Source of the DNA: a bacterium | GTDB taxonomy: Bacteria > Zixibacteria > MSB-5A5 > CAIYYT01 | DNA: 64,000 nucleotides | Direction of reading: 5' to 3' | Assembly (NCBI GenBank): GCA_016708315.1 | Contig: JADJGC010000008.1 | Span: 31,699-95,698 of the forward strand | In this document: positions 21,622 to 62,365 of the stretch, piece after piece | Layout of the letters: every line of letters begins with the position of its first letter | Numbering within the stretch: position 1 is the first letter of the stretch | Made by a program: the position numbers and the translations under genes | Notes under the pieces: generated by a model | Told to the model about the DNA's origin: nothing | The model's database searches: none | The model's input: only the letters and a program-made list of their open reading frames with translations

Positions 21622-22230
21622 TCAGGAAGCGGTGGTTTTCTCAGAATCGCCCGGAGCGTAGTTTTCCGTGGACACAATGGCAGCCTCGGCCAACCCACCA
21701 CTCGATCCTTTGTTATCCAATTCGATGACCGCCGAGGTCGTGTTCCGCCAACCCGGCTGGTGATCGATGATCAGACATTGTTCGATGCCGTAATGACTGA
21801 TGTTCTCCTTGAGCTTGTCGAAGAACGGCATCAGCAAATCTAGGTTGGCCTCGTCGATGTGCGTGCTGGGTTCGTCCAGGATCAACACATGAACGCGCGG
21901 GAGAATCATTCGTTGCAGCGCAATGCGGAACGCGATGCCCACCAGACTGGAATAACCGCCCCCGAGTGCCAGCGCCGAACTGGCCTGGGTATTCCGATCC
22001 TCCACCAGGATCTCCAAGTCCGCGCCCAAGTGCAGCTTGACCGGCAATTCCATCTCAGTGAGCAGAAGATTGGTTTGGTTGAGCGCCTCATGAAAAAAGC
22101 TGGTGAGAAACTTCAGCGGCCCGTTGTCGTAAGAGAGAAATTTGCTGACGGCCTCCAGATCGGTCACATTTCGCGTCTGCTGGTCGAAACTTTCCTTGTG
22201 TGCGCGCAATTCGTTCAATTGCTGGCGCAA
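21622..22230 (-). CDS. sbcC: SbcC/Rad50-like ATPase C-terminal fragment (signature motif + Walker B); frame open upstream to 22404
   Basis: LGGGYSSLVGIAFRIALQ (ABC signature), VLILDEPSTHID (Walker B/D-loop); the same frame reads coiled-coil sequence upstream to a stop at 22405-22407. Confidence 0.7.
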   Translation of the reverse strand: MRQQLNELRAHKESFDQQTRNVTDLEAVSKFLSYDNGPLKFLTSFFHEALNQTNLLLTEMELPVKLHLGADLEILVEDRNTQASSALALGGGYSSLVGIAFRIALQRMILPRVHVLILDEPSTHIDEANLDLLMPFFDKLKENISHYGIEQCLIIDHQPGWRNTTSAVIELDNKGSSGGLAEAAIVSTENYAPGDSEKTTAS

Positions 22231-22319
22231 CTGGCCGCCTTGTTGTTGGAGCAGTTCCGTCTCCGCGCGTAACTGCTGAATTTGGCCGATCGCCTTTGAA
22301 GTTCGGCAATCCTTTCTTT

Positions 22320-24386
22320 CTAGAATGATCCCCAGACGAGACTCGTGAGTTTCTGGCTGGCGGAAGCGATCCCGCTCTTCAGAGCTTCCACGTTGCGGAG
22401 TTTCTCAAAGCGGTTGGTCCAGTCGCCGCTCGCCTTTTGAAACGCGTCCTGTGCCTGATTCAACTCTTCTTCCTGACCCCGGCAAAGCTCAGTGTAATCG
22501 GTGTCGTTTCGGTAATCCTCCGGTTTGGCTTTGAGGCCGTGTTCCAACTCGCCGAGCTGCCCTTGGATCATCTCGGCTTGCTGTTTGAGCCGGGCGCGTT
22601 TCCTGGCATTTTCGTGCGCTGTCGTCTGCTTCCCCAGCAGTTCGCGTATTCGCACGCTTCCCTGTTCGATTTCATGGGCCAGTCGAGCGTCTTCGGCCGC
22701 ACGCCCTTGCTCTGCCGGTGACTCGGATACGATTTTCTCGCGCAGAGCATTTGCCTCCTTAGTCGGCGGAGTCAGGGCCGCTGTGACCTTCTGGTAGCCC
22801 GCGAGCACAATCTGAATCTGGCCATCCTCACTTTCCGGAAGTTGGAAAGCCGCCATCTGGGCGTTCAACTCCCGGCGCTTCCCGGCGCAGGCCGTTTCGT
22901 CTTGTTGAATCTGCTGGCGCAGTTTCGGAATTTCCGTTTGAGCCTGAGTCCATCGTTGGTACTCCGCCGCGGCTTGCGGGGATTTCTTCAGGTCGGCTTG
23001 CAGCTCTTTCGCCAACGCGTTGAGTTCGTCGCGGCGCTGAACCAGGGCAGGCTTTTCCCAGGCACGCTGGCAGAGCGGACATTGTTCCGTGGCAACGGTG
23101 GCGTGGCGATGAAGGCTGACGAGTTCCTGCAGCTTTGCCTCACTGGCCTTGCATGCCTTTAGCACTGCTGGCGACGGAGGCCGAACCTGCTCATACTGCG
23201 CCAGTCGTTCCTTCTGCTGGCTCAAGGCATGTTCCTGTGCCAGGAGTTGATGACTTGCGGTGTGAAGCTGGGATATATGGTCGAGCGTCAGCCGGTACCA
23301 ATTCGGGCTGTGTTTGAGTTCCGAGACGGTCTTCTGACTTTCGACGATGATTTTCTCCAGCTTCCCGAGTTCGCTGCGGAGTTGTTCCAGCGCCTGGCGA
23401 GCGCGGGCGATTTCATTCCTGCGATTGATCTTTTTCTGGAGCGTGTCGCTGCTCTCCTGAATCTGTTCAGTGTAATTGGTGCTGTCCTCTGGTGTTCCCG
23501 CCAACTCCTCTTGCGTGCGGCTCAGTTCTCGCCGCGCTTTCTCGACTTTTTGATGCTGCAGAGCAATCTGACTTCGCGCCAGTGCCGCACGAATGGTTTG
23601 AATCCGTTTTTGCAGCTCATCCAAATCCGGCAGCGGTTGCGAGATCCCTGCCTGTGTCTGGGCGAGTTTTCCCTGCTTGGCGGTGAGTTCTTTTTCGGCG
23701 CTCTCACGGAGCGTTTTGATCTCCTGGAGGCTGTTGAGTTCGCGTTGCAACTCCTCCGCTGGCGGCAAGGCCGCAGCGGTGACCTTCTTCTCTTCGGTCC
23801 GCCTTTCAAGCTGCTGCAGTTTGCCTTCGACATCGTGCATCAGTGGACTTGGGTCGAGGACGGTCGGGTAAGCGCGAACGAATTTATTGAGGGTTGCCTG
23901 CTTTTGCAGGAATCCTTTGAACCCGCAAATCTCAATGAACTTGGTCAGCCGCTCCTTGCCGCGCTCTTTGAGGAGACTGGCGATTTGTCCCTGGGGCGCG
24001 ATGAACAATTCCAGGAGGGTTTCCTGGCGACCGAACCATTCCTGAAGCTGCCTTTGGATTTCGTCCGCGTTGGTCAGCGTTTTGTCCGCGAATTCCAGCT
24101 TGGCTCGGGTTTGGCGCGGCTTGATCTCTCGCGAAATGGTGAACTGCGTCCGCTCGTGGGTCAGAGCCGTGAGTCGCAGAGATGCCTGCTTCGCTCCGTA
24201 CTGGATCGCCGATGCATCGCCGAATTCGCTCCGTCCCAAGGCGAGCACCCGGCCGATTGCCCGGACGAGGTTGCTCTTGCCGGAATTGTTTGGCCCGCTC
24301 AACAGGATGATCGGTTCGTCCGGGAACGTCAGGTCCAACCGCGAATGCTGACACCAATGCTGCAATTCAAGTCGGAGGAGTTTCAT
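22320..24386 (-). CDS. sbcC: SbcC/Rad50-like ATPase N-terminal part (Walker A, coiled coil, zinc hook); split from C-terminal part by frameshift
   Basis: GPNNSGKS Walker A, long coiled coil with CPLCQR zinc hook; ends TAG 22320-22322 while the C-terminal domain continues in another frame. Confidence 0.8.
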   Translation of the reverse strand: MKLLRLELQHWCQHSRLDLTFPDEPIILLSGPNNSGKSNLVRAIGRVLALGRSEFGDASAIQYGAKQASLRLTALTHERTQFTISREIKPRQTRAKLEFADKTLTNADEIQRQLQEWFGRQETLLELFIAPQGQIASLLKERGKERLTKFIEICGFKGFLQKQATLNKFVRAYPTVLDPSPLMHDVEGKLQQLERRTEEKKVTAAALPPAEELQRELNSLQEIKTLRESAEKELTAKQGKLAQTQAGISQPLPDLDELQKRIQTIRAALARSQIALQHQKVEKARRELSRTQEELAGTPEDSTNYTEQIQESSDTLQKKINRRNEIARARQALEQLRSELGKLEKIIVESQKTVSELKHSPNWYRLTLDHISQLHTASHQLLAQEHALSQQKERLAQYEQVRPPSPAVLKACKASEAKLQELVSLHRHATVATEQCPLCQRAWEKPALVQRRDELNALAKELQADLKKSPQAAAEYQRWTQAQTEIPKLRQQIQQDETACAGKRRELNAQMAAFQLPESEDGQIQIVLAGYQKVTAALTPPTKEANALREKIVSESPAEQGRAAEDARLAHEIEQGSVRIRELLGKQTTAHENARKRARLKQQAEMIQGQLGELEHGLKAKPEDYRNDTDYTELCRGQEEELNQAQDAFQKASGDWTNRFEKLRNVEALKSGIASASQKLTSLVWGSF

Positions 24387-25498
24387 GCGGGCTTTTCGGG
24401 GAGCGCCAGCAACCCGGACAAAGTTTGGTCAAAAGGGTCTTGCGTGAGAACCACGGCGAGGAGTTGGAGTTGGCGTTCGGTGAGTTCCTTCTGTGCAATC
24501 TCCAAAATGTCGGCTTCCTTCATGTCTTGCAGCGGCTTGGCCATGCCTCGCGACAGGGGCACTTCGGAAAACACGAGAAGTTTCTCGCGCCAGCGAGGCA
24601 AATGTGGTTTGAGATTCGCGCGAAGCCTTTCGGGATAGTGCAACGCGAGTATTCCTCCCGGATGTTTCTCAACCCACTGATCCACGGATTGAACAGCCAG
24701 TTCGGCGTCCTCTTCCGGGCTGATCACCCGTTTCAAGTAAGGCCGGTTCGGCAGGTCGACGGTTTCCCAATTCTTTCCATGCTCCCGGCCAGGATAAAAT
24801 CGGAGATACTTTTTGACCGGGTCGTAACGTCCGCCGAAGCGATCACTGACGATGTTGCCTTCGGAGATTTCTGTCATCTCAGTCGAGCCGCCGTACACGA
24901 ACCAGTTATTCCCGACTGGATCGTGAAAATCGGTGTACGTGTGCAGATTCCCCATAAACACCGTGCAGTTCTTCAACCCCAGCCCCCTCAATTCCTCGGC
25001 GCTGAAATCGTACTCTGGCTCGGGCACGTGAATCGCCCAAGCCATCAGCTCCAAGAGCCGGCCATGCAGGAAAAGGCAGCGAGTGTTCTCCGGCAACTGC
25101 TTGATTTTCTCGTAGAGCGTTTCCCGCGGTTGAAACGAAAGAAATGCCGCGGCGATTTCGCCGAGGTTTACAATCCGGCCGTTGGCGTTGATTTCAGGGC
25201 CGACGGTGTCCAGCCACGAGGCGTCGCTGCCGTCGTGGTTGCCGTCAATCGCCAGGAATGCCTTTCCAGCGTTGCGGAGTCGTTGAGCGATGTTCTGGAG
25301 TTGGATCTGATATTTCGGCAGCAGGCTCTTCCTGTGAAACGTGTCGCCGGTAAGGATGACTGCCAGGCACTTTGGATTCGTGCAACCTTCCCGTAGAATC
25401 GCTTCGATGCACTGTTGATTGTCCTGGTGGCGAATCGGCAAACCGTATTGCGCGCGCTCCAAGTGGAGGTCGCCCGTCACGATGTAGTACCGATCCAC
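24383..25498 (-). CDS. sbcD: SbcD/Mre11-family nuclease
   Basis: Metallophosphoesterase motifs TGDLHLE, GDTFH, DGNHDG, LHGRL; 4-nt overlap with sbcC. Confidence 0.85.
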   Translation of the reverse strand: MDRYYIVTGDLHLERAQYGLPIRHQDNQQCIEAILREGCTNPKCLAVILTGDTFHRKSLLPKYQIQLQNIAQRLRNAGKAFLAIDGNHDGSDASWLDTVGPEINANGRIVNLGEIAAAFLSFQPRETLYEKIKQLPENTRCLFLHGRLLELMAWAIHVPEPEYDFSAEELRGLGLKNCTVFMGNLHTYTDFHDPVGNNWFVYGGSTEMTEISEGNIVSDRFGGRYDPVKKYLRFYPGREHGKNWETVDLPNRPYLKRVISPEEDAELAVQSVDQWVEKHPGGILALHYPERLRANLKPHLPRWREKLLVFSEVPLSRGMAKPLQDMKEADILEIAQKELTERQLQLLAVVLTQDPFDQTLSGLLALPEKPA

Positions 25499-46011: not shown

Positions 46012-46470
46012 TCAGAACTGGAGGTTCGACGACAGCAGATCGGCTTCCCTCCGGTTCTGGCGGAGACGGCACACGTTGGCCCGGATTTGCTCCAACTCTT
46101 CGGGCGAGAATGGTTGCTCCGGATTTTTGGCCGATTCGACTTCGCCGCGATAGACCGCCTCGATGATCAGGAAATGGGACTGCCGGCGTTTACCGGGGTG
46201 GTAGGACCGCGGCCGGAATACTTGCGTCAGCCAATGCTGGATGAAGCCGGGGGCGCGGCCGATTTTGATCAGAATGAGTGTCATCGTCAGCGCCACGAGC
46301 CACAGGGCGATGTGCCAAATCGGGATGTTGACAGGCATGAAACTGGAGATGCCCAGCGGACCGAGAAAACCGATGACCATGATCACGAACAGGTCGAACA
46401 CCTCCAGGTAATAGAGAAAGCGGATTGGCGCATTGATCTTGCGATTGTAGGGGATGATCCGGCAGTGCAT
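46012..46470 (-). CDS. small membrane protein (2 TM), possibly a T4SS component
   Basis: Two hydrophobic helices; directly downstream of the VirB4-like gene. Confidence 0.45.
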   Translation of the reverse strand: MHCRIIPYNRKINAPIRFLYYLEVFDLFVIMVIGFLGPLGISSFMPVNIPIWHIALWLVALTMTLILIKIGRAPGFIQHWLTQVFRPRSYHPGKRRQSHFLIIEAVYRGEVESAKNPEQPFSPEELEQIRANVCRLRQNRREADLLSSNLQF

Positions 46471-46505
46471 TTGGCGGCAGCGTGATTATCGGTTCGCGAT
46501 CCGGT

Positions 46506-47756: not shown

Positions 47757-49047
47757 CCTGGCTCGAAGAATAGGCGTGATCGCGGTAGCGATCCTTGTCG
47801 CTCAAGTATCCCGGGGTGGTCTTGAGAAAATACGGGGCAATCGGCGTGGTCTCGTGGATCCAGGTCATGCCCTCGTTCTGCTGCCCGAATTGGCGCTGTT
47901 CCAGCACCAGATTATTGAGCGCATCCAGGTCGGCGGCCCAGAGATGAATTGAGTGTGCGGCGGTCCAAGGGCGGTCCTTGCCCGTGGCTAGTTCGTCAAT
48001 TTCCGCTTCAATCTCTTCCAACGTTCGGCGCAGCTCGGGTTGTTTCTCCACGCGGCCCAGCACCTGAAGGCGCCGATTTTTGAGCCGGCGCAGCCGCCTG
48101 CCAATGTCGCTGCTGCGCGCCTCCACGCTGAATGCGCCAGAGACAAAACCCGGCGCCAGCATCTGCGGCAGCAACATGCCAAACTGCAACTGTGTGGGCG
48201 GCTCGTGAAGAAACAAAATCCGCCGGTAAAGGCCGTCCATTTGAATCCAACCCTGCCGCGGGTTCACTTCCATCTGGCCATGGACGAAATAGGATGTGGC
48301 CGGCTTCGGTTCAATCGGAGCGTAAGGCGGCGGCCGCACGCCTTGTGAGTACGACTTCGGGTTGTACCACCAGTAAAGCGTCTCGACGATGTCTTCGGAG
48401 GGCAGGAGTCTCGACTCGATGCCAGCGGCCTTCAGGATGGCCTGAGCCTGCTGCGCCTGTTTGGAGAGCAGGTTGACGGCGGTGTTCCACTCTTCCTCCG
48501 TCAGGTTCGCAGCCTCGGCCATCGAGAGTTCAAGGCTGTCGCGCAGGAAATGGGTCACGCGACTCAACCAGTTTTCCTTGGGACTCAATTTGCGATGCCG
48601 CTTGATGCGCTCGGAGAATTCCACGATCGGCTCGACGCCGACGAAGAGGTAGCAGGCGTACCGGCGCAACTGGTTGGTGGCGACTTTCTCCTGGTAGTGC
48701 TGGCCGATGTCCTGCTTGAACTGCGCCAGCAGGGGATTGCCTTTGGGCGTCGTCGACAAGTAGTCATCCAGCAATTTGCCGTATTGATTGTGGCAGATGG
48801 TGATGAACTGGAGCCGGGTTTCTGTGTCGCCCATCACGGCCAACTGGTTGAGCATGCTGCTGAAAGCGTTGTGCAGTTCATCCGCCTGCGCGCTCGAAAC
48901 AAAGAGGGTGTCCGGATACTGCACCCGCAACCCGACCGCCAACGACATGTCCTGAGCAACGATGACGTGGTTGTCTATCCAGGCGATGGGAATTTCTTCA
49001 TCGAGACAAACCCCGGAAAGACGGTTGATCCGCTCGTAATCCAGCAT
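47650..49047 (-). CDS. VirB4/TrbE-family ATPase, N-terminal part
   Basis: 465 aa with CagE/TrbE/VirB4 N-region character; overlaps the C-terminal part by 107 nt in another frame. Confidence 0.7.
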   Translation of the reverse strand: MLDYERINRLSGVCLDEEIPIAWIDNHVIVAQDMSLAVGLRVQYPDTLFVSSAQADELHNAFSSMLNQLAVMGDTETRLQFITICHNQYGKLLDDYLSTTPKGNPLLAQFKQDIGQHYQEKVATNQLRRYACYLFVGVEPIVEFSERIKRHRKLSPKENWLSRVTHFLRDSLELSMAEAANLTEEEWNTAVNLLSKQAQQAQAILKAAGIESRLLPSEDIVETLYWWYNPKSYSQGVRPPPYAPIEPKPATSYFVHGQMEVNPRQGWIQMDGLYRRILFLHEPPTQLQFGMLLPQMLAPGFVSGAFSVEARSSDIGRRLRRLKNRRLQVLGRVEKQPELRRTLEEIEAEIDELATGKDRPWTAAHSIHLWAADLDALNNLVLEQRQFGQQNEGMTWIHETTPIAPYFLKTTPGYLSDKDRYRDHAYSSSQVGDLAARTVFARRNRSPTFVPIPYETWHNVQFCAP

Positions 49048-49092
49048 GCCCCAGTATAAGGCCGTCCGTCTCGGCTTTCGCGAAGAGCCGAC

Positions 49093-50154: not shown

Positions 50155-52281
50155 TCAATCTGCTGCGAGCATTTTTTTGCAGTGCGGGCATTCAGGGATC
50201 CGGGCCAGAAACGGAGCTGAGGTGGGCGGTAACAAAGGCGCGCACATGTCCGCGCCGAACATGTGCACGGGGTCAAACTTCTCTGGCGTGGCAATCGCGG
50301 CCGAATCGTGTGGAATTATAAAAGCATAATCCCGGTGACAATCACCGCATTTTCGACGGCCCCATTCGGAATCACAGTCCCGGCAGGTCATCATGGCGGC
50401 GTCTTCCTGCTGGTCCACGGAAGTTGATTGGCAGCATGGACAAGATTGGAGGACCTGGAGTCGGTCGCGCACATTAACAAGGCGCTCAAAAATCCCGCTT
50501 ACAACCCTGAGGGTTGCTTCTTCTTTTTGCTCCTGTGCGTTAATCTCCTTTTTTTGAAGGTTTACAGCGGCAAGCAAACGACGGTTATCCCGAACACGGT
50601 GCTCCTCCCGCTTAAGATTTTCCCGTGCGGAATAGGTTTGTTCCAATTGGCGCTTTGCTCTGGTAGCCCGCATTTGCGCTTCTGCGATCAAGGAGTCATC
50701 GGGCGGCACGGAAAATAGAAAATCCTGTTCCACCATGTGGATGCCGTGGCGGTGTGACAATTCGTGCCACACGTCTGCCCAGCCGTTCATTGGCACGCGG
50801 ACCGGAAGACTTGGCCAATCCAGTTCAGCGATCACCCAGCGAATGATACGCGCCACCAATTCGGTGGAGTCAATTTTCAGGGGCGATACTTCCACCCAAA
50901 CCATGTTGTCCGAAAACAAGGCCGAGGACCGAAGTCGTTTGAACTTTTCCACCACTGGATCCGACCAGTCAGCGGCAGTAGCACCAGAATCATCCACGCT
51001 CACGATCAACACTGGATGGCTTTGTTTTTTCATTTCGAGGAAAGTCTGGAAGGCAACATCGACCTGTTTTTCAGATTGCGCTCGCCAGCAGGTGTATAAC
51101 CCAACGATATGCAATTGTGGTTTTCCGTGGCATTCCAAAAGAAGTGAGTAATCGTTCTGGACCAGCAGCGTCCACTGGCGGGCCAAGCTTATTCGCTTTC
51201 CGAGCGCAATGGGTTGATTCGTGTTTTCGGTCGGAATCAGTCCGAGTTGCCGGCACGCGCGGATGGTCAGCAACACCGTGAATAGATTCCAATCCGAACA
51301 CGCCCGCCTTCGATTTGCGGCGCGCTCGGCAGGGGTAGGCGGCTTAACCGAGGCCACGCGTTCCCACATGTGCCACAAATGAAAAGCCTGGCGATAGTGG
51401 GCATCACTTTGAAAGACGTTCGTTGAATGCAATGGACTCTCGACCGCGGCGAAGTGCGGCATCTGCTTGAAGAGAAACGTATCGGCCAGTGCCAGCAGGC
51501 GCGCGCGGGCGGTTTCCAGGTCATGAATGAGTTGGGCGAGACGGTCGCGGCTCGGATGGCTTGAAAAAGCCTCACCCCATAAAATGAAAAGCCGGTCTCG
51601 ACGGAAGCGCGTGCCTTGTGCTGCCTCCGAATGTTCACTTGCTTCATCCAGGGCCTGCAAGATTTGCTGTAATTTCTGGAGTCGTGGATGGAGGACGCCC
51701 AAAATCCGTTTGCGGAGAGTAGCTACGGCGCGGTTTTCATAAATGTCCCATTGGTCTCGCCTTGATTCCGCAAGAATGCGCCTGGGGCGAACCCCAAGGA
51801 AGGTCCGGGTTTGCCAATCCTCCGAGTGGGCGGCGAGCGTCGCCACGGCGCGATGGGAGACCCGTCGCGCACGCCCCACTTCCTCCCGAATTTCCTCAAT
51901 CGTCAGATGACCTCGTGGATTGTGGCTGAGCGTTTCCACATGCGGCAGCGCCTGAATCAAAGCCTGCTCATAGTCGCGCAGGTCCAAGTCTGAGGTGATC
52001 GTTGGGTCCAGCGGAACCAAGCGCGGCCAAGGTTGCAGTTTCCCACCCCAAAGCGGCTCGATCCTGGCGGCGAGATTTCGCAAGCTTTGACAAAGCGTTT
52101 CAGTTGGCTCGCTGCCGGAATCGGGGCGCTCCAAATCCCGCTCCGTTCCCGGCCAAACGTGTCCGTTCCGGACAGATTGCCAAAGCCCCAAGAACGGCAA
52201 TGACTCAGGGGTTGAGCAAGACTGTCCCGTAATCCGGTTGCGCCAGAGTGTTTCCATCAATCGATCAGGTTGCGCCCCCAT
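50155..52281 (-). CDS. McrC-like partner of the McrB-like GTPase (candidate nuclease subunit); Cys-rich C-terminus
   Basis: 708 aa, start overlaps upstream McrB-like gene (operon order mcrB-mcrC); C-terminal CPCC...CRDC...CGDC...CPHC zinc-ribbon-like cluster; PD-(D/E)xK motif not confidently identified by eye. Confidence 0.5.
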   Translation of the reverse strand: MGAQPDRLMETLWRNRITGQSCSTPESLPFLGLWQSVRNGHVWPGTERDLERPDSGSEPTETLCQSLRNLAARIEPLWGGKLQPWPRLVPLDPTITSDLDLRDYEQALIQALPHVETLSHNPRGHLTIEEIREEVGRARRVSHRAVATLAAHSEDWQTRTFLGVRPRRILAESRRDQWDIYENRAVATLRKRILGVLHPRLQKLQQILQALDEASEHSEAAQGTRFRRDRLFILWGEAFSSHPSRDRLAQLIHDLETARARLLALADTFLFKQMPHFAAVESPLHSTNVFQSDAHYRQAFHLWHMWERVASVKPPTPAERAANRRRACSDWNLFTVLLTIRACRQLGLIPTENTNQPIALGKRISLARQWTLLVQNDYSLLLECHGKPQLHIVGLYTCWRAQSEKQVDVAFQTFLEMKKQSHPVLIVSVDDSGATAADWSDPVVEKFKRLRSSALFSDNMVWVEVSPLKIDSTELVARIIRWVIAELDWPSLPVRVPMNGWADVWHELSHRHGIHMVEQDFLFSVPPDDSLIAEAQMRATRAKRQLEQTYSARENLKREEHRVRDNRRLLAAVNLQKKEINAQEQKEEATLRVVSGIFERLVNVRDRLQVLQSCPCCQSTSVDQQEDAAMMTCRDCDSEWGRRKCGDCHRDYAFIIPHDSAAIATPEKFDPVHMFGADMCAPLLPPTSAPFLARIPECPHCKKMLAAD

Positions 52282-54646
52282 TCAAGCGTTTGATTTCCCG
52301 TTCCAGCAACTCGTAACATTTTACCGGTTGGTTAGGCTTATCAAAATTATCCCATTCCTGGATCAAATGGGTTTGGAACTCTTCGAGTTGTTTCGCCCCG
52401 AGATCAAACCTGCCGCGCAGCTTGCGAAGCAATTTGGTCGCAAGGATATGATCTGTGGCTTCACCCAGAGTGCCGCCGGCTTCAATAATAACCGGCACAA
52501 ACCGATTCATCTGGCTTTCGAGCCGATTGCCCCAGCCTAAACCCAGTTTGGCGAGCTGATGAGTGAGTGACTTATCCAAAAAGTTCTTGGCTCGGATAGC
52601 GGCATCCTTATGTGTGTTTACCGCCCGATTAAAGGCTCCATCGATTGCGTCCTGTGTGATCGGGACCGGCGAGTTAAGCGGTCTGGGCACGAAGGCCTCG
52701 GGGTGTCTCGGAAACTCCATCACATGGGAGCGGTCATAGGTTTTGTCGGCGAAATCCTTGGTGGTTTCGTCATGATTGGCCGTGCCGATGAACCAGACGT
52801 TGCGCGGAATGCGCAACCAGCGGGCTTCCTCGAGCAGCTGCGGAGCACCATCAATCCTGGACGTCAGCAGACTGACACGCTGCTTCTCCGGGATTTGTTC
52901 GAGTGCCGACAGGAAATCCGCAAAGTAGTGCTCCGGATGCGATAGATTCATTTCGTCCAAGACAATGAAAAACGGAACGTTCCGGTAGTGAGGCTGTTGG
53001 GCACGATACAGAGCCTGGAGAAACTCCGACTCATAATAACGTTTCTCGAATGCGTTGTAATAGCCCAACAAGTCGTTCCGGTCGCGCCAGCCAGATTGGA
53101 CTTCGACGATAGCCGAGGTGGCGCCGATGGCCCGGGCAAATTCGCGGGGGAGGCTAGTTTTACCAGTGCCGCTGATGCCTTGGAGCAAATGAAGCCGACT
53201 GGTGGCCAGACCGGCAAGAAATGCGCGCACGTCCTTGTCCCGGTAATAAAGTTTTTTCTCGCCTATCCGATTCCGAATCTCGTCCACCAAGTCTTTGAGC
53301 GGCGGCAGTTTCTCGAGCACCCTTGCCGGGGGTGTTTGAAGAGTCGCATCGCCATCCATCTCGATAAGGCTAGGGAAAACGCATTGAGCCTTCGACTTGT
53401 CAACTAGTTCCCCAAGCTCGCGGCGCAAATCCTCGACACAGGAACGTAGGGCGCGTTCGCGGCTATCCCAAGCTGCTTTCTGGTCTCTCAAATTTTGCAT
53501 TTCAGCAACGCCGATGGATAATTTGCTCATCTGGGACTGCAACGATTGGTTATCTTGGAGCAACCGTGCCAAATCCGAATGCAGAGTCTCATTCTCGCTT
53601 TCCAAGCCGATGAGTCGGGCAATCTGATCATCTGCAGGTTTACGGGCCAGTTCCGCCACCAACTTTCCGTGCCGCTCCTGCAACGTGGTCAGTTCAGACA
53701 GCAATTCTTCCCGTGTTTTTCCGGCGGCAACGCGTTCGGTTTCCTCGTAGCGGCTAATCTGCTCGGCAAGCTGTTTGCACCGGGCCAAAGCACTCTGCAA
53801 ACGGCTTTCCCGATCGGTAACCGCTTCCCGGACTTTTTCCTCAATTCTTGAGACCCAGTTGGTCTTAAGTTCTTCCGCCTCCTGCTTGGCCCACTCGGCT
53901 TCACGCTTGGATCGAGCCACTGCCTGTTTTTCCAACTGAAGTTGCTGTCTGCCTTCCTCCACGCCGACCAACTCGCGTTCCCGAATCTGGCGAAGCTCAG
54001 TTTCATATTTCTTTATGCCATCGAGATAACTCTGATGATGCTCGGCAATCTGCTTTGCCAAGGCCTTGGCTTCTTCATCAAGTTTTGCGAGTGCCTGACG
54101 ACGTTGTTGCAAAAATCCAGACTCGGCGTCGATCTCTCGTTCCTTTAGTTTTTCCTCTGACTGGATGATGTCTCTTTCCCGACGGTCCAACCCCGATTTG
54201 CGGTCATCCAATTCGCGCTGGGTCTTGCGCTGTTCATCCTTTTGCTGGCGTAGTTCCTCCTCACGCTTCTGAACCTGTGCGTTATGTTCATGGGCTTCGG
54301 CTTCCCGATTTTTGGCTTGTGCCTCTGCGGCCTCCATGCGGCTTTGGGAACGCTCAAATAGTTGCCGAGCTTCGTGAGCCACTTTCCATAGATTTAGCGG
54401 ATCAATTTCCGACGCGACGGGGGCCAGTGGCGGCATGGGCGGATTGTTGAGATCCTCCTCGGTCAGAAGGTTGGTCGCCTGATTCGAAATTACAGTGATC
54501 TGCGCCACAACTTCCGCAGGAGTGGATGGGCCAGCGGGATTGACAGGTGATGCCGAGGTTCCGGCATTCGCCACCGCCGGCTGCATATTTTGCCGTCTGT
54601 TATTGCGATCTTTTTTGCTCATAGTTTTGAGGCTTTGTCGTTGCAA
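52265..54646 (-). CDS. McrB-like AAA+ GTPase (AAA_5) with about 450-aa N-terminal coiled-coil domain
   Basis: GISGTGKTS Walker A, FFIVLDEMNLSHPE (McrB DEMN Walker B), GTAN...DRS signature; N-terminal half is E/R/K/Q-rich heptad sequence. Confidence 0.8.
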   Translation of the reverse strand: MQRQSLKTMSKKDRNNRRQNMQPAVANAGTSASPVNPAGPSTPAEVVAQITVISNQATNLLTEEDLNNPPMPPLAPVASEIDPLNLWKVAHEARQLFERSQSRMEAAEAQAKNREAEAHEHNAQVQKREEELRQQKDEQRKTQRELDDRKSGLDRRERDIIQSEEKLKEREIDAESGFLQQRRQALAKLDEEAKALAKQIAEHHQSYLDGIKKYETELRQIRERELVGVEEGRQQLQLEKQAVARSKREAEWAKQEAEELKTNWVSRIEEKVREAVTDRESRLQSALARCKQLAEQISRYEETERVAAGKTREELLSELTTLQERHGKLVAELARKPADDQIARLIGLESENETLHSDLARLLQDNQSLQSQMSKLSIGVAEMQNLRDQKAAWDSRERALRSCVEDLRRELGELVDKSKAQCVFPSLIEMDGDATLQTPPARVLEKLPPLKDLVDEIRNRIGEKKLYYRDKDVRAFLAGLATSRLHLLQGISGTGKTSLPREFARAIGATSAIVEVQSGWRDRNDLLGYYNAFEKRYYESEFLQALYRAQQPHYRNVPFFIVLDEMNLSHPEHYFADFLSALEQIPEKQRVSLLTSRIDGAPQLLEEARWLRIPRNVWFIGTANHDETTKDFADKTYDRSHVMEFPRHPEAFVPRPLNSPVPITQDAIDGAFNRAVNTHKDAAIRAKNFLDKSLTHQLAKLGLGWGNRLESQMNRFVPVIIEAGGTLGEATDHILATKLLRKLRGRFDLGAKQLEEFQTHLIQEWDNFDKPNQPVKCYELLEREIKRLNGGAT

Positions 54647-56243
54647 GATTCAGTAGACACCCAGTTGCGTGAATAATCAGCTCCCACATCTCTTCTGCTT
54701 CCGAAATTGAAAAGCGTTTAGGCGAAGGGTTGTGCGAGTCATCATGAGATCCCGCGTTGCCTAGGTCGATTATGCGGGCAAGCTTGCGCAAGAACTCTAC
54801 ATCTTTGGACGCTGCTTTTCTGAGGGGATGGACCGGGTGCAATGATGACGCCAACAAAGTTGCAACCACTGCACTTGGCAATTTGTAAACGTTACCCACA
54901 TCCCGGCATATTCCAATTATGAGGCCTTTGTTTGGCTTTCCGCCCGACTTATCAATCTGAAAAACTCCGGGCAATGGCAGGCGTAATCCAATTGATTGAG
55001 CTATGTGGTCAACGGTTGCCCGGTCAATCGCAACGTCGCCGTTAAGAAGTGCCGGCGCATTACTCAACGATGAAACTCGAGCGATTGACTTCAGCAACGC
55101 TTCAAGCGTCCTTCGACATGATTGCATGACCGAGCCGAGGTCACTCTGAGATTCTCCTTCGGTGGCTCTCGCCAGGGATAAACTTTTGGCCGCTGCCACC
55201 AGGTGCTCAAAAACGGCGGAGGTTGCCTTAATATCGAGGGACAGTCGCGCCACGACCTCGGATTCGGCAATTTTTTGTTGCTGCTCCAACAACTCCTCCA
55301 AGGCCGGAGCATCCTTAATCTGCGCGAATCGCAAAAAATCCCGCTGGGCACCAGCCGCGCCCTCATCGTCTCTAGCTATTCGTTGCAGTTGACGCCACAT
55401 TTTCTCGTCGCACCCAAATCCGAACGGATCACAAATCTGAGGTAGAAATGCGCTCCCTTTGGGCAAGTATCCAAACGTAACCAGCCCGGCTGGCTCGGGC
55501 TGGTCGCTAATCGAAGCGATACGCGCGAGCAATTCAGGTGAATCATCGCCGGCGATTCCCATTATCTCCGATGCATCCAAGCGCATTGATTTTTTCTGTT
55601 CTTCACGACGGCGACACTGCTTTACCGCCCGCAAAATCATGGCGCTGGATGGTTGCACCGGGCTCGCCGGGGCATCGAAGGTCCAAGCAGGAACCTTGCG
55701 TAGCCCCCTTTTTGAATCCAGTGCCAAGTTCAAACGTCCCAGTCCATAGCCTATGGTGGTTTCTTGAAGCTGAAGCTGTTGGCTGAAGTGCGGCCAGAGT
55801 TCGCCGCTCCAGGGGTCTTGGAATACCCAACCGGTGATCAATGTATCTATGATCAATTCTTCTTTTTCAAGGACGTCAAGCCCCTTGGGTGTCGGGCGGA
55901 ATGATTTCTGGTCCACCCAGCCAGAACGGACCAACTCCATGCCGATATTTTCAACCAGGTGAGGATGGAGGTGAAGTTTGGTGGCGATCTCCGCGACCGA
56001 ATATGAATTGCTGCACCACAAACCGAGCACTGCTTTCTGGAGAAGGTTGATGCGTTGGTCTGATGGTGCTGGTGCCACCACCCGCCATGCGGCGCATGGC
56101 CAAACAAGATAGACACGCCCCGTGCGATCATAATCGTGGTGGGCGGCTCGGGGACCGTAATTTAAGACAAGATCCATGGTGTCAGAAAATTGCCCCATGG
56201 CTGCCCCGGCAAAGTTTTTGGAATGCATGGAGGCCGGGGACAT
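54600..56243 (-). CDS. hypothetical island protein (possible wHTH near N-terminus)
   Basis: 547-aa ORF between helicase and McrB-like genes, overlapping both. Confidence 0.5.
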   Translation of the reverse strand: MSPASMHSKNFAGAAMGQFSDTMDLVLNYGPRAAHHDYDRTGRVYLVWPCAAWRVVAPAPSDQRINLLQKAVLGLWCSNSYSVAEIATKLHLHPHLVENIGMELVRSGWVDQKSFRPTPKGLDVLEKEELIIDTLITGWVFQDPWSGELWPHFSQQLQLQETTIGYGLGRLNLALDSKRGLRKVPAWTFDAPASPVQPSSAMILRAVKQCRRREEQKKSMRLDASEIMGIAGDDSPELLARIASISDQPEPAGLVTFGYLPKGSAFLPQICDPFGFGCDEKMWRQLQRIARDDEGAAGAQRDFLRFAQIKDAPALEELLEQQQKIAESEVVARLSLDIKATSAVFEHLVAAAKSLSLARATEGESQSDLGSVMQSCRRTLEALLKSIARVSSLSNAPALLNGDVAIDRATVDHIAQSIGLRLPLPGVFQIDKSGGKPNKGLIIGICRDVGNVYKLPSAVVATLLASSLHPVHPLRKAASKDVEFLRKLARIIDLGNAGSHDDSHNPSPKRFSISEAEEMWELIIHATGCLLNLATTKPQNYEQKRSQ

Positions 56244-57336
56244 ATTGGGAAAATTCGGACGAGGCCATGGCTGAATCTCCGACCGTAATCAATAATCGCT
56301 TTTGGCGACTCATCGCGACACACAGGCGGTTTTCAAGCAATAGATGGCCGAATTTGCGGCGAACACTTTTATCATCGGCGGGTTGAATTCGGTTTGAACG
56401 AGTCAGCGAGAGGATGACAACATCGAATTCCTTGCCTTGAAAGGCATCCACGGTCCCGACGCGAAGACGTTCGCACACTTCGCGTTGAGCGTTGACTGTG
56501 CTGCGCCAGGCATCCGCAATGACCAAATCGTTATCATCCGACAGGGTTGTCAGGTCCACCCGTTGCATTGCGGTCATGATGGCCTTGACCTGCGCGGCAT
56601 AAAAAGAAATGATCCCCACGCTCAACCCGGGAGATTCTTGCAAGATGCGGCGTGTTTCGGCGGCAATCCAATCCGCCTCACAATGCCGAACCCAGCTGTG
56701 GTCGGCGTGTTCCTCTGCACCGTTGTAGATGGGCAGATTCTTCCAAACCGCAAGTTTTCCCTCGTAGCTTCCGCCCAAGCCGTGGGCAAATTGCGGGTTC
56801 AATTCGGCACCATCGGGCGATAGAAACGCCTCACCGTGGTCCTTGTAAAAGGCGTCACTTACAAAAGTGCCCAGCACCGGATGCATCCGGTATTGGGTGT
56901 CCAGCGTGACCCAGCGTTTTATACCGTCTAATTTCTCCAAATCCTTGACGTGGATGAACAGCCGTTCAAACAGGCTCTTACGGATCTGGTCGCGGGTCTC
57001 ATCACGAACAGATTGCTCAAGTTCGCGCTCCACTTCTGGCTCCAAAAGATGGGGCAGTTGCCGGTGATCACCCACCAAAATGATTCGCCGGGCGGCTCGG
57101 CTCAGGGGAATGAGCAAATCAAGGGGATTGGCCCGGGCCGCCTCATCGACAATGACATTCTCAAACTCAAGATCGTCCGAGAGCATTTCCATCATCCGGT
57201 CACTGACCGCCTGCTGACAAGTTGCCGCAAGGACCACCGTGTAATTCTCGACGGTTTTCCGCAACCCGACCGGGTCATTTCGCAGGTCCTGAATCAGTTG
57301 TTCGAGCACCATATCCGGCCCCCTCAGCCGACGCAT
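56182..57336 (-). CDS. Upf1-like SF1 helicase, C-terminal part (motifs II-VI); split from N-terminal part by frameshift
   Basis: IVDEAARANP (motif II), ILVGDHRQLP (III), VDAFQGKEFDVVILSLTRSN (V), CVAMSRQKRLLITVGD (VI). Confidence 0.75.
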   Translation of the reverse strand: MRRLRGPDMVLEQLIQDLRNDPVGLRKTVENYTVVLAATCQQAVSDRMMEMLSDDLEFENVIVDEAARANPLDLLIPLSRAARRIILVGDHRQLPHLLEPEVERELEQSVRDETRDQIRKSLFERLFIHVKDLEKLDGIKRWVTLDTQYRMHPVLGTFVSDAFYKDHGEAFLSPDGAELNPQFAHGLGGSYEGKLAVWKNLPIYNGAEEHADHSWVRHCEADWIAAETRRILQESPGLSVGIISFYAAQVKAIMTAMQRVDLTTLSDDNDLVIADAWRSTVNAQREVCERLRVGTVDAFQGKEFDVVILSLTRSNRIQPADDKSVRRKFGHLLLENRLCVAMSRQKRLLITVGDSAMASSEFSQYVPGLHAFQKLCRGSHGAIF

Positions 57337-59515
57337 TGCGAACGCACTTGTCCAAGGTGGAAATCATCTCATCAAGAACGTTGATGACTTCCGAATTGAC
57401 CAATGGGGTTCGGGAAGGCGGGGTAGATAATTGCAGGGCATCCAACAGCCGATTTTTGACCAATTCCATTGCCGGCAAGAAGTCGGGCGCAGACTCACTA
57501 TCCCAGTCTCTGGCCTTTTCCAAAAGGGCGCGGTCTTCGGCAGTGAGCCAAGAGCCTGATGATAATTGATTGAGAACCCGCCATGCCATCTTCGGCCCGT
57601 CATCGGCGAACGCCTCTTTCTGAATGCGCAGACCACGGACCACCTGGATGGCTGCCTGACACTCGTCGTCCTGACCGGCCACTCCCAGTTTGAGGCGGTC
57701 AGCCACACTGACAATCCGGTCAGACAAATCCGCTGGCAAATGCTCGCCTGCCAACGAACGTAAATCCAACAGCATGCGAGCGGCTTCGGTTTCAGTTCCA
57801 GGAGATTTGACATAGGAGGCATGTCTGATCCGAATTGTTTCCAGCAACTTTCTCAACGGCTTTTTTGGGCTGGCTGCCAAGTCCGCCTCCAAGGCTTCCG
57901 CGATCCGGTTGGTCCAAGCTATCAAGGGCAGACTTTCGGAGTTGTCTCCTCGTCGCCGGCCCACCTTCATCGCCGGAAGGCCGAAAATCTCGGTCATGGC
58001 CGCCGCATTCTCGACCGCATCATGTTGGAAGCTTGTGAGCAACACCTTTTCGAAGTCAGCGTTTTGATCTTTGGCAATTTCAGTAAGGCGCTCGATGATG
58101 GCTGATATGGTGCGGGTCTTGCCGGTGCCGGGTGGCCCTTGAATAACGGCTATATCGGGGGTGTTCAATGCAACCCTGATGGCTTCCACCTGCCGTGGGG
58201 TCGGCGCACCGGAATGAAACCGGGCTTTCGCCGCGCCGGACAACGGTTCGTGCGTCTGCACGCGGCGAACCGGCACTGGCCGGTTTTCAAGCAACAAAGC
58301 CAGTTGTGGAATTGAAGTCTTCCCGCTGGCAATGCGTGAATGCGCCTCGTTTCGGCGTGCCATTCTTTTCAAATCGCCGCGCAAGCTGACATGAATATAA
58401 CCCCGATCTGGTGGCACAACCCCATCTTGGGTATCGGGGCGCAGTCGAATGCTTTGGGTGTCGTTACCAGCCAAAGCGCCACGAAACGCCGGCCGTGATT
58501 CGCGAACCGCTATTTGAAAACTGGGCGTCTCTTCGTCGCCGGCTGGCGTGCTGGTGAGCATATCCGGGACTTCCGCTGATGCCTCCAAATCCTTGTCGGC
58601 GGTGATGCCCTGCCATAGTTGGGAGGGGGTCCATTGGCTATCGGCGGTCAACTGAAAAGACCAGCATCCATCCGGCATTCGATGACAACCATCGTAGCTC
58701 AACCAGCCAAAGCGTTTGGCCTCTTCAACGACACGCCGATGTTCCATCGCCTGGTATTCCAGCCAGACTCCCAAATAACTGCCGGCGGTGCGGACAATCT
58801 GATCGAGTTCCGTTGCCATCCCCTGCCGCATCTTGCCGGCTATGGTCTGATCAACAAATTCAAAGGCCCCTTCGGCAAGAATAACGGGGCGATATTCTTC
58901 CGGTTTGATGGCGGTCTTGGGGCGGGTTAGACGAAATGCCAACCAGCCACCTTCTTTATGCCGTTCGACATCCAGCGCGAATCGGTCACCGAGGATTCGG
59001 AAGGCTTGTTTTTGGCTATGTTGCGAGTCTGGCCGACCAATGATGATTACCCTGGCCAGTCCAGCTGGCGAATTGGGCTGGATGATTAATTTATCGGCGA
59101 GCCAAGCACAGGCGGTTTCGGTTGAGAAACGGCGTGCCTGTTGTCGTCCCATATCGGCCACCAGCTTTTCGTCCACGCCGATTTTTAGCTCAGGAATAGA
59201 AAAGCGTTCCGAGAATTCGTGAATCTGGATGGTCAAAGCGACCAACTGATTGCGGTCAGAGCGCAAACCAACCAACCAACACAACCGGGGAGCATCCTGT
59301 TCAATTGAGCGTTGCAGTTCCCTCCGACTTTTGTGGTCCCTTGCATCAACAACCAATGGTTCGGCTTGGCCCGGAAGAATAAGCGCACACAGGTCGCCAA
59401 CGCGCGTCAGCATCAACTCCCGCCCGTTGGGCGGAATCCGCTCAATTCCGACATCCACCAAGGGGACAACATCAAGCGTCAGAATCTTACCGTGTTGGAG
59501 GTTGGCGATTTCCAT
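57275..59515 (-). CDS. Upf1-like SF1 helicase, N-terminal part (large N-terminal region + Walker A)
   Basis: VIQGPPGTGKTRTISAIIERL; overlaps the C-terminal part by 62 nt in another frame at a C5 run (57319-57323). Confidence 0.75.
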   Translation of the reverse strand: MEIANLQHGKILTLDVVPLVDVGIERIPPNGRELMLTRVGDLCALILPGQAEPLVVDARDHKSRRELQRSIEQDAPRLCWLVGLRSDRNQLVALTIQIHEFSERFSIPELKIGVDEKLVADMGRQQARRFSTETACAWLADKLIIQPNSPAGLARVIIIGRPDSQHSQKQAFRILGDRFALDVERHKEGGWLAFRLTRPKTAIKPEEYRPVILAEGAFEFVDQTIAGKMRQGMATELDQIVRTAGSYLGVWLEYQAMEHRRVVEEAKRFGWLSYDGCHRMPDGCWSFQLTADSQWTPSQLWQGITADKDLEASAEVPDMLTSTPAGDEETPSFQIAVRESRPAFRGALAGNDTQSIRLRPDTQDGVVPPDRGYIHVSLRGDLKRMARRNEAHSRIASGKTSIPQLALLLENRPVPVRRVQTHEPLSGAAKARFHSGAPTPRQVEAIRVALNTPDIAVIQGPPGTGKTRTISAIIERLTEIAKDQNADFEKVLLTSFQHDAVENAAAMTEIFGLPAMKVGRRRGDNSESLPLIAWTNRIAEALEADLAASPKKPLRKLLETIRIRHASYVKSPGTETEAARMLLDLRSLAGEHLPADLSDRIVSVADRLKLGVAGQDDECQAAIQVVRGLRIQKEAFADDGPKMAWRVLNQLSSGSWLTAEDRALLEKARDWDSESAPDFLPAMELVKNRLLDALQLSTPPSRTPLVNSEVINVLDEMISTLDKCVRNASAEGAGYGARTTDSGPAK

Positions 59516-59518
59516 GTG

Positions 59519-60961
59519 TTATGGCATCGGTTTGAAAACGACCGCTCGATGGAGCCTGTCCAGTGGACCAAAGTGCAAATGCCAATGCGGGCTTTGGGAC
59601 GCTATCGGGATTGGTTTTTCGGCGGCGACACCCAGGCTATCAATCGTTTTGTCCTGACCGGTGTGCTTCACCAACAGGAACGATTCCTGAGACAGGTTGC
59701 GCACCCGAATCGAATCAGCCCGGGTGCGAGTGATTTCGACGAGCGGTTGCTCGGTCTGGTCTGATGCATCATCACTGTGAACGTGTCGGCGCAAGATTTG
59801 AACTGATTCTTTAGGTGCCAAAACGATCGTGGCCAAGGAACGACTCTGACTGGTCGAGGTTTTAACGAAGCCGCCTGGTGAAGCTCCGGTGGCAAAAGTA
59901 ATTTCAGGATCCCAAAGATAAACAACCGCCAAGCTTAACTGCGGGCGAGGCTGTCCGCACCACGGGCACTCACGCCTTTGGGGGGCGTAAAATGAAGCCT
60001 GGCAATGCGGACAAGTGATCGTCACGTCGGCCGCCTGACTGAGAGCACTGACCCATTCCCCCAAGCCGGGGCGGGCAAGGCGGTCTTTAAGCCCGTCCTC
60101 GAACATGCGCTTGAAAAGTTTTTTTACCTCCGGGGAAATTACGATGTCTCGGTCAATGCCCCGGGAGGAACGATTTTTCAAATCGGTGGTGTGTTCGATC
60201 CAAGGCATATCACCGCGAAACGCCGCCTCTTCAAGTTCCGGTTCGCCATCGTGGACCAGATTGCCCACGAACGGGTGGACGAGGGTCAGCAATTCAAAGG
60301 CAATCACAGCCAAGGCGAAAGCATCGGTCAAAGTATCCGGCCCCATGTCGCCACGAATCAATTCGGGTGCTCCATATCCAGGGGTAAAAACCCCGGAGGC
60401 GGTAGCATCGCGCTGAACATGTAAATTATCGGCATCAATCAAAAAAGCCCAGGAGTGATTTCCATCGGAGCCAAACAGAATATTCTGCGGTGAGGGATCG
60501 CCGTAAACCAAACCGCGTCCATGCAAGCGGCTGAAGACATCAAAAATGGCCACCAACTTTTGCAACCTTGCCCGCAGTCCCCCAGTGGCCACATACCACG
60601 CGGTCACACTACGACCATCTGCAGGTGGAACCATCATGGCTCGAAGTGATGACATGCCGGCGGCCAATTGCATCAGATAGCCCACATGTGGAGGTCCTAA
60701 TACAGCAATTGGTGAAGCGATGGGCAGTCCAGCCAAGTCCAACCGCTTCACCGCCTGAATGCAACGACGCAGACGCTGCCGCTCACTTTCGCTGACGGAT
60801 CGCAGGAGTTTCACGGCGAGACGGCCTTCCTTGACCTCGAAAACATCCCCTTGACCACCCTGGCCAATCAACTTTGCCAAAGTATAGCGACGGCCTTCGA
60901 GGTCCGTGACCACTTGACCACAGACGGTTGATTGGATGCGGGGTGATGGCATGGCAATCAA
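59519..60961 (-). CDS. Ser/Thr protein kinase with C-terminal zinc ribbon
   Basis: IGQGGQGDVF Gly loop, AVK lysine, LVYGDPSPQNILF catalytic loop, TPGYGAPE; CPHC...CPWC. Confidence 0.8.
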   Translation of the reverse strand: MIAMPSPRIQSTVCGQVVTDLEGRRYTLAKLIGQGGQGDVFEVKEGRLAVKLLRSVSESERQRLRRCIQAVKRLDLAGLPIASPIAVLGPPHVGYLMQLAAGMSSLRAMMVPPADGRSVTAWYVATGGLRARLQKLVAIFDVFSRLHGRGLVYGDPSPQNILFGSDGNHSWAFLIDADNLHVQRDATASGVFTPGYGAPELIRGDMGPDTLTDAFALAVIAFELLTLVHPFVGNLVHDGEPELEEAAFRGDMPWIEHTTDLKNRSSRGIDRDIVISPEVKKLFKRMFEDGLKDRLARPGLGEWVSALSQAADVTITCPHCQASFYAPQRRECPWCGQPRPQLSLAVVYLWDPEITFATGASPGGFVKTSTSQSRSLATIVLAPKESVQILRRHVHSDDASDQTEQPLVEITRTRADSIRVRNLSQESFLLVKHTGQDKTIDSLGVAAEKPIPIASQSPHWHLHFGPLDRLHRAVVFKPMP

Positions 60962-61707
60962 TGACTCAAGATGACGGCAACCGTTTTATCATCGAGATGA
61001 CCTGGCGTTGGCCATTCTCGCAAAGCCCGGCGGAGCGTCGGACCCCTTTCGATACTTGGCTTGCCAGCAATTTCGTTTCGCAACCATTTTATGAACACGT
61101 CCAATTTGTCCGGGCGCAGATCGTCAGCAATTCCGTCGGTCACGAGGACGGCGATCCATGGTTCTTTGGAAAGCGGCAGGCTAACGTGATTCCAGTCGGT
61201 CATCCGGTGGTTCACACCCAGTCCGAGGGTTTCGTTGACAAAATCCCCGGCGGGCCGAGTAGAAAGGCATTGGACCGGTTGTTTTCCCCGTTGGAAAAAG
61301 GCCATGCCGTCGCCCAGCCCCGCATATATTAATCCCGCTTTCGGATGGGCGGCAATTAGATGACAGGTGGTGGCACATTGCTGCGGCGGATGTGGCGCAA
61401 CCGAGAAACGCCATTGCGCTTCAAGCCAGCGACAAACCCATTCCGAGCCGACGTCAGTTGCCTTGGCCCACAACCGAGTGGCTCGAATGGCCGAGGCGCA
61501 TGCGGAGCGCGCTCCGAGTGCGGCAAATGGTTTTGATCCCATGCCGTCCCCGATAGAAATTGCCGCCGCTGGCCCAAACGACCGTCCCCGCCAAACATCC
61601 TCGCAGGGTTTTCCGTTCTTTTTGTGCATAGGGCCACGCACTGATGCCCCAAAAATAATTGGCGCAACAGCGAGCGTAGCACGACCATGCTTAGTAACGG
61701 ATTTCAT
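60958..61707 (-). CDS. PP2C-family Ser/Thr phosphatase
   Basis: CEDVW...SIGDGMG, AGLGDG, VLVTDGIADDL; 4-nt overlap with kinase gene. Confidence 0.8.
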   Translation of the reverse strand: MKSVTKHGRATLAVAPIIFGASVRGPMHKKNGKPCEDVWRGRSFGPAAAISIGDGMGSKPFAALGARSACASAIRATRLWAKATDVGSEWVCRWLEAQWRFSVAPHPPQQCATTCHLIAAHPKAGLIYAGLGDGMAFFQRGKQPVQCLSTRPAGDFVNETLGLGVNHRMTDWNHVSLPLSKEPWIAVLVTDGIADDLRPDKLDVFIKWLRNEIAGKPSIERGPTLRRALREWPTPGHLDDKTVAVILSH

Positions 61708-62365
61708 CTATTTCCAAGGGATCAACCGGGGCAATTTTATCAGGTGTGGCACTCCGACTGCGCACGGTAACGCTCATGGTCACCCACTTGAAAAATTTGT
61801 GAATATCGCGGGCCTGGTGGGCCTGAAACACTTTTGACTCAGGCGCATTGAGGAAACTCTGAAGCATTTGGCCATCGGCGTCCGCACCGATCGCCATGGC
61901 CATACGAGCCGCCTTGGAAGCCCGCGCTGATTCGAGCAACTGTTTCAGGGGCAACTGCCATTCGTCACTCGGCTGCCCGTCTGAAACCAGCACGAGCGTG
62001 GGACGATAAGACCGGGAAGGAACGAGTTTCTTGCCCTCCAACATGACGTGCAGTTGGGTCAGGGTTTGCCCCAACGGGGTGTTGCCCTGAGCAACCAACG
62101 GCTGCCATTTCTTTTTTGCCTCCGCCGCATTCAACAAAGGCAAATGAGCGCGGACATCGCCCCCAAAGGCAATGGCCCCGATTTGGATCATGGCGCGAAC
62201 ATCCGGCTCGGCGGCAAAGGTCGCGAGCATTTCCTCAACGGCCCGATTCAGCGCTTCAATCTTGCCGTTTTCCGCCATGCTCCCGCTGGCGTCGAGGAGA
62301 AGAAAAACAGGGAGAGGGCGGGCTTGATCGACCGTGAACTCCTTGAGTGTGATTTCGTTCTTCAT
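61691..62365 (-). CDS. vWA domain protein (TerY-like)
   Basis: MIDAS LLLDASGSM, LVLVSDGQPSD; start at MKNEITL (ATG 62365). Confidence 0.75.
   Translation of the reverse strand: MKNEITLKEFTVDQARPLPVFLLLDASGSMAENGKIEALNRAVEEMLATFAAEPDVRAMIQIGAIAFGGDVRAHLPLLNAAEAKKKWQPLVAQGNTPLGQTLTQLHVMLEGKKLVPSRSYRPTLVLVSDGQPSDEWQLPLKQLLESARASKAARMAMAIGADADGQMLQSFLNAPESKVFQAHQARDIHKFFKWVTMSVTVRSRSATPDKIAPVDPLEIDEIRY

Follow-up and report, generated by a model that had tools for sequence, protein, structure and literature searches.

In the present study, we examined a 64,000-nucleotide (nt) stretch of contig JADJGC010000008.1 from a bacterium of the Zixibacteria lineage (hereafter the window) and found that two overlapping open reading frames (ORFs) on its minus strand are one broken gene, cnuH, and not a two-gene design. 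The gene encodes a UPF1-like SF1 helicase and stands in an operon which, judged from its gene content and order, is a Type II CoCoNuT, a system predicted to act against phages by targeting RNA. The reading frame is broken where a GGGG run has one G too many (GGGGG), and we propose that this extra base is most likely, with a probability of roughly 60%, a consensus error introduced by the assembly or polishing of a metagenome-assembled genome (MAG), in which case the organism itself would carry an intact cnuH.

Several lines of evidence bear on the nature of the break. First, the two ORFs behave as the halves of one coding sequence. The 5' frame (746 amino acids, aa) contains the Walker A motif GPPGTGKT and the 3' frame (384 aa) carries motifs II-VI; they lie in different frames and share the 62 nt from 57275 to 57336, within which the plus strand reads GGCCCCCT at 57317-57324. 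The ORF listing and the sequence thus bear out the original prediction of a helicase split by a frameshift, in the coordinates of both ORFs, their overlap, their different frames and the position of the run, although the homopolymer named there as C5 is C5 on the plus strand and G5 on the coding strand, which reads GAG GGG GCC. In Pfam comparisons, positions 5-70 of the AAA_11 profile match residues 441-506 of the first ORF (E 5.9e-11) and positions 183-251 match residues 23-95 of the second (E 1.1e-16), where an AAA_12 match follows (E 9.5e-33); because the AAA_11 match is spread over both ORFs, a single helicase domain has been cut in two. The description of the 3' product as an AAA_12-like C-terminal part therefore holds. 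That of the 5' product as an AAA_11-like N-terminal part is right as regards the Walker A motif and the AAA_11 match, but the helicase core occupies only residues ~440-506 of its 746 aa, with accessory domains at residues 1-430 and a helical insertion at ~529-758 of the protein. When one G is taken out of the run, a continuous frame of 1110 aa is opened.

Second, the homologues are encoded by one gene. More than a thousand relatives were retrieved with the repaired protein as query. Lengths were judged on the best 120, and 115 of these are single proteins of 1084-1135 aa at ~93-100% coverage; the comparison of orthologues, which had been named beforehand as a possible refutation of the frameshift, hence did not reveal a two-gene arrangement. 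The nearest homologue (P0001), encoded on at least eight contigs from independent samples, is exactly 1110 aa long and shares 90% aa identity with the repaired protein. Across the junction it reads NAAAEGPDMVLEQL, and the repaired window protein reads NASAEGPDMVLEQL, a residue-for-residue match (NASAEG|PDMVLEQL). Alignment of the 3334-nt gene with eight relatives (88.2% nt identity) showed exactly one indel, at the G run, where the relatives have GAG GGG CCA and the window has GAG GGGG CCG. Runs of at least five identical bases cover 46 nt of the gene and runs of at least four cover 218 nt; since the sole indel in 3334 nt sits at such a run and the runs cover so few nt, the association of the break with a homopolymer is not attributable to chance.

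Third, the other interrupted copies carry their breaks at other positions. Of the five short hits, three are interrupted copies of cnuH, namely the product of the window itself (P0015) and two relatives, L009 (Logan ERR14822389) and L010 (JGI 3300056623), each interrupted at a different place; the remaining short hits, P0010 and P0092, were left out of this comparison. In L009, a G has been lost from a G run near residue 653, and in L010 the break lies near residue 290. Both loci have several frameshifts each across the operon (in cnuH, cnuE and cnuB) and are probably noisy assemblies. As the breaks are scattered and the orthologues are fused, the split is sporadic and does not represent an architecture. 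A genuinely split two-gene helicase was rejected on the fused state of 115 of the 120 homologues, the position of the cut inside the RecA1 domain and the different positions of the other breaks. Separately, four short AAA_11/AAA_12 proteins of 241-385 aa (P0122, P0124, P0128 and P0130), encoded on long contigs of 21-114 kb, resemble the C-terminal portions of further CnuH-like helicases that are split in public assemblies. The DNA itself had no match among E. coli genomes and plasmids.

The position of the break indicates what the extra base would do to the protein if it were real. The frame shifts after Gly732, and first-frame translation ends 14 codons later, with the out-of-frame tail AGYGARTTDSGPAK followed by TGA. 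In an AlphaFold2 (AF2) model of the orthologue with 90% identity, the break falls between the helices at residues 708-727 and 732-746, both within the insertion that separates the RecA1 strands 491-495 and 761-765; on this model, it lies in a loop that precedes the final two helices of the insertion, inside RecA domain 1. Because the cut falls inside RecA1, the Walker A motif is left on one product, and the Walker B motif and the whole of RecA2 are left on the other; if the base is real, neither fragment could form the ATPase site, and the helicase would be dead. In the Mokosh system, a mutation of the ATP-binding site of the helicase abolishes defence (Millman et al. 2022, bioRxiv 10.1101/2022.05.11.491447), and by analogy the split would disable the CoCoNuT.

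The alternatives of a sequencing indel and an inactivating mutation, set out in the original prediction, both still stand, and the indirect evidence leans toward the former. Relative to the relative L001, the ratio of nonsynonymous to synonymous substitution rates (dN/dS) is 0.081 after the break and 0.128 before it, compared with 0.06-0.23 in the six neighbouring genes of the operon, all of which are intact. In the alignment of the 12.2-kb cassette, only two uncompensated coding indels were observed; both are changes of GGGG to GGGGG on the same strand, and the second lies in the last codons of cnuB, 5 kb from the first, where the end of the protein changes from ...NGA* to ...NGGAT* and the stop codon is pushed into the start region of the next gene.

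Lesions were also observed in two other conserved genes of the window. The SbcC/Rad50-like gene is divided into ORFs at 22320..24428 and 21622..22404, with one A missing from an AAAA run (22295-22297) and, 22 nt away, an in-frame TAG at 22320-22322 in place of the CAG of the relatives. The patch that contains both lesions is 37 nt long and carries five substitutions private to the window. Relatives of this gene each encode one protein of ~890-970 aa, in most cases 917-932 aa, and the gene is intact (921 aa) in same-species contigs from three Logan runs (98.1-98.4% nt identity) and in about a dozen of the listed members of its 90%-identity cluster. Compared with the same-species Logan contigs, the window has one indel over 4.9-5.6 kb, the missing A. 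A GGGG run at 22330-22333 was rejected as the site of this break, since alignment to the relatives puts the indel at the A run. The NCBI entry for this gene holds only the 688-aa N-terminal part (MBK7091786.1). In the PilT-like ATPase gene, the in-frame TAG corresponds to Glu in four intact 384-aa relatives (96-97% aa identity), the closest relative is 99.4% identical (320/322), and the alignment to solved PilT continues straight across the TAG; only a 265-aa C-terminal part is listed at NCBI (MBK7091795.1, 'TadA'). In other datasets, relatives of 98-99% identity carry the SbcC-like and PilT-like genes intact. Reassignment of the TAG codon was rejected because TAG is the stop codon of six other window genes, whose boundaries are normal. 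A further candidate, a split MshEN/T2SSE pilus ATPase at 28531-30385, was also rejected, as the downstream frame has a normal start 7 nt past the upstream stop and the two frames appear to be genuine separate genes.

Fresh lesions private to the window affect three conserved genes within 64 kb, a pattern typical of consensus error. Homopolymer indels, which break up gene calls, are the known weakness of Nanopore consensus sequences (PMC9262707), and the present case resembles these errors in the one-base change of length, the short homopolymer, the splitting of a conserved gene and the presence of similar private lesions on the same contig. By its accession and locus tags, the record probably belongs to a set of activated-sludge MAGs assembled from Nanopore R9.4.1 reads with CANU, Racon and medaka. 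Activated-sludge Nanopore MAGs have been described with a single Illumina Racon round, often at ~10-25x coverage (PMC8012365).

Several observations weigh against a consensus error. A near-identical cnuH with an intact allele from other samples was not found in the junction, peptide and ATPase searches: the exact junction, with either four or five G, was absent from the GTDB genome contigs and JGI metagenome contigs scanned, a 220-aa protein query spanning the junction returned only distant short proteins, and a same-species genome sought through the conserved ATPase gave only matches of 30-33% identity. Gene junctions elsewhere in the window are mostly canonical, for example ATGA overlaps, and the assembly is therefore not riddled with frameshifts. 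Unlike typical long-read homopolymer errors, two other lesions in the window are not indels but substitutions to TAG, which could mean real gene decay in the strain. Defence genes are often lost or inactivated in nature. The assignment of the record to a Nanopore data set is tentative, as the literature searched did not tie accession MBK7091821.1 or tag IPH59 to a published data set.

In the second explanation, to which we assign a smaller but far from negligible share of the probability, the extra G would be genuine: a slipped-strand insertion, dating from very recent times, would have inactivated cnuH in the population and disabled the CoCoNuT. The 746-aa product would then keep the accessory domains and the Walker A motif, without the Walker B motif and RecA2, and translation of the 3' part would be poor or absent. 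Homopolymers are natural hot spots for indels, and the lesion of cnuH sits in one; defence systems are frequently inactivated; the nonsense substitutions in the SbcC-like and PilT-like genes are harder than indels to explain by polishing error; cnuH is broken at other positions in L009 and L010; and the Mokosh result cited above suggests that such a split would be a true knockout. Nevertheless, the 1.15 kb downstream of the break has acquired no second lesion and retains its low dN/dS, and because this part is undecayed, a real event would have to be extremely recent. The intactness of all six other genes of the operon also stands against inactivation, and three independently broken, otherwise well-conserved genes in 64 kb greatly exceed the normal pseudogene density of a free-living bacterium. 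The lesions of the SbcC-like gene fall in an error-dense patch, and the frameshifts across the operons of L009 and L010 resemble assembly noise and not selection.

It is very unlikely that the split is functional, whether as a two-subunit helicase, through a programmed +1 ribosomal frameshift on GGG-G, or as a phase-variable G tract. On GGG GGC, the P-site tRNA-Gly could in principle re-pair one base downstream and restore the frame, the ATG at 57312, with GAGGGGG 6 nt upstream, could start the 3' product, and NCBI lists the two parts as separate proteins. Against this, the split arrangement is not conserved (the homologues are overwhelmingly fused, and the closest relatives read GGGG in frame), RecA1 is cut in its interior and not at a domain boundary, the remaining interrupted copies have their breaks at other positions, and known contingency tracts are much longer than five bases. 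Since Shine-Dalgarno sequences are not used by the rest of the operon, the GAGGGGG is probably incidental. With a tract of 5 nt in the window and one of 4 nt, in frame, in the relatives, a phase-variable locus and a programmed frameshift were both rejected. It is highly improbable that the G tract serves as a heritable on/off switch or a leaky one (+1 slippage on GGG-G) that throttles a costly helicase, or that the fragments reassemble into a working enzyme.

The identity of the operon rests on its gene order and on domain matches (Table 1). The layout described for Type II CoCoNuT systems is a TerY-P triad followed by CnuH, CnuE, CnuB and CnuC (Bell et al., eLife 2024, PMC11090510). The relatives share a cassette of seven genes, encoding vWA, PP2C, Ser/Thr kinase (STK), helicase and three further proteins of 525 aa, 771 aa (with AAA_5) and 700 aa, and the window has the same cassette in identical order at 50155-62365. 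This order, with the zinc ribbon (ZnR) of the kinase included, is vWA, PP2C, STK-ZnR, CnuH, CnuE, CnuB and CnuC, and the earlier description of the protein as a defence helicase is thereby upheld and refined to CnuH of a Type II CoCoNuT. The TerY-P triad, with vWA, PP2C and an STK bearing a C-terminal zinc ribbon, is present upstream of cnuH, and the CxxC pairs of the kinase, at residues 314 and 329, lie beyond the kinase domain. CnuH itself has the large helical insertion after the Walker A motif and an N-terminal SmpB-like (SPB) OB domain.

The window differs from the described system in the following respects. In CnuH, the gene is interrupted by one extra base, and the RelE-like RTL domain was not recovered by a fold search. 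In the CnuE-like protein, a canonical HEPN motif RxxxxH is expected; instead, GN(A/P)xSHD(D/E)SH is conserved at residues ~485-495 in the window, L001 and L010, and the sole RxxxxH, at residue 386, is not conserved. This C-terminal GNxxSH site may be a variant or inactive HEPN site in a subgroup of CoCoNuTs. The N-terminus of the same protein gave a weak hint of a winged helix-turn-helix (wHTH) domain (Pfam MarR, E 0.084, residues 53-89). CnuB and CnuC agree with the description. In CnuB, the AAA_5 domain at residues 467-619 has an NxD signature (not NxxD) in GTANHDE, and the ~440 N-terminal residues have the heptad-rich, charged sequence of a helix; comparison with solved structures by sequence gave no McrB match at E<=0.1. 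DUF2357, the N-terminal domain of McrC, was matched in Pfam by 45 of the 68 CnuC homologues (best E 1.8e-9), and the CnuC of the window had no Pfam match itself and only chance-level matches (E>=0.36) to solved structures by sequence. Its four CxxC motifs lie at residues 607-694, and its length of 701 aa leaves no room for an Hsp70 unit. In the closest relatives, L001-L006, the CoCoNuT operon has as neighbours (positions 1-6221) an MmeI/Eco57I-type methyltransferase gene and the genes for an SNF2-PLD helicase-nuclease and a WYL/WCX regulator; this defence-island context is absent from the flanks of the window.

Two other groups of helicases were compared. Mokosh type I and the operon of the window both associate a COG1112/Upf1-like helicase with a Ser/Thr kinase. 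The helicase of the window matches PADLOC MkoA (E 9.1e-89), and its kinase aligns with the corresponding portion of that model (E 6e-9). In MkoA, however, the kinase is fused to the helicase, whereas in the window it is a separate 477-aa gene upstream, accompanied by a vWA/PP2C pair and McrBC-type partners. The PLD nuclease, with its HxKxxxxD motif, was sought in the 525-aa neighbour, which has neither an H.K motif nor a PLDc Pfam match and whose PADLOC MkoB match spans only profile positions 6-202 of 610, the N-terminal third; HGKILTLD at residues 8-15 of the helicase was rejected as a PLD motif because it is not conserved. Since the kinase is a separate gene and no PLD nuclease was found, the system is not Mokosh type I. 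Compared with the eukaryotic UPF1-like helicases (Upf1, IGHMBP2, SETX/Sen1, DNA2 and ZNFX1), CnuH of the window stands in a bacterial defence context, its N-terminal domains differ, and its RecA1 helical insertion is much larger.

Whichever explanation applies, a discrepancy of one base in a homopolymer of a known type of gene is nothing unusual, and the importance of the finding lies mainly in the public record. There, one CnuH appears as two unrelated proteins on a 116,811-bp MAG contig (MBK7091820-22, tags IPH59_*): the 5' part is MBK7091821.1, an 'AAA family ATPase', and the 3' part is MBK7091820.1 (IPH59_08875), a 'hypothetical protein' of 376 aa from the ATG at 57312. Surveys of defence systems that rely on this record could consequently overlook the Type II CoCoNuT or count it as incomplete, and protein clusters are polluted by the cnuH fragments. 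With the SbcC-like and PilT-like genes also lesioned, claims on gene content or pseudogenes in this genome should first be checked against the reads. The biology gains nothing new; should the base prove real, a further inactivated defence gene has been recorded.

Table 1. Coordinates of the CoCoNuT operon, the interrupted helicase gene and the other lesioned genes in the window
Feature	Position	Strand	Match or remark
TerY-like vWA protein, first gene of the TerY-P triad	61691..62365	-	Pfam VWA, E 5.6e-11
PP2C phosphatase of the TerY-P triad	60958..61707	-	Pfam PP2C_2, E 2e-28
Ser/Thr kinase (477 aa), third gene of the TerY-P triad	59519..60952	-	Pfam Pkinase, E 4.4e-14; C-terminal zinc ribbon CPHC...CPWC
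cnuH, one gene of 3334 nt	56182..59515	-	1110-aa UPF1-like SF1 helicase after removal of one G
5' reading frame of cnuH	57275..59515	-	native residues 1-732: N-terminal OB/HIRAN/SmpB-like and other accessory domains, Walker A, most of the helical insertion
3' reading frame of cnuH	56182..57336	-	native residues 733-1110: last two helices of the insertion, remaining RecA1 with Walker B (DEAA), RecA2 with motifs III-VI
Extra-base site GGGGG (plus strand CCCCC)	57319..57323	-	relatives GGGG (GAG GGG CCA)
CnuE-like protein, 525 aa	54600..56177	-	PADLOC MkoB, N-terminal part only, E 3.4e-9
CnuB, ~440-aa coiled coil followed by McrB-type AAA_5 GTPase	52265..54586	-	Pfam AAA_5, E 1e-5; PADLOC PDC-M26A, E 1.4e-51
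Second GGGGG, last codons of cnuB	52275..52279	-	relatives GGGG
CnuC, McrC-family protein	50155..52260	-	DUF2357 in homologues; C-terminal zinc ribbon of four CxxC motifs
SbcC/Rad50-like gene, split in two frames	21622-24386	-	adjoins an SbcD-like Metallophos gene
PilT-like ATPase gene	30908-32092	-	in-frame TAG at 31706-31708

A further group of genes adjoins the CoCoNuT operon on the minus strand at 39409-49092. It encodes a 671-aa DinG-like helicase, a family-A DNA polymerase of 1142 aa that includes a 3'-5' exonuclease, with a 152-aa ORF just upstream of the polymerase in the same frame, a 465-aa protein without matches and a TraG/HerA-like P-loop ATPase of 416 aa (PADLOC mad8, E 1.3e-13), and may be another defence or mobile module.

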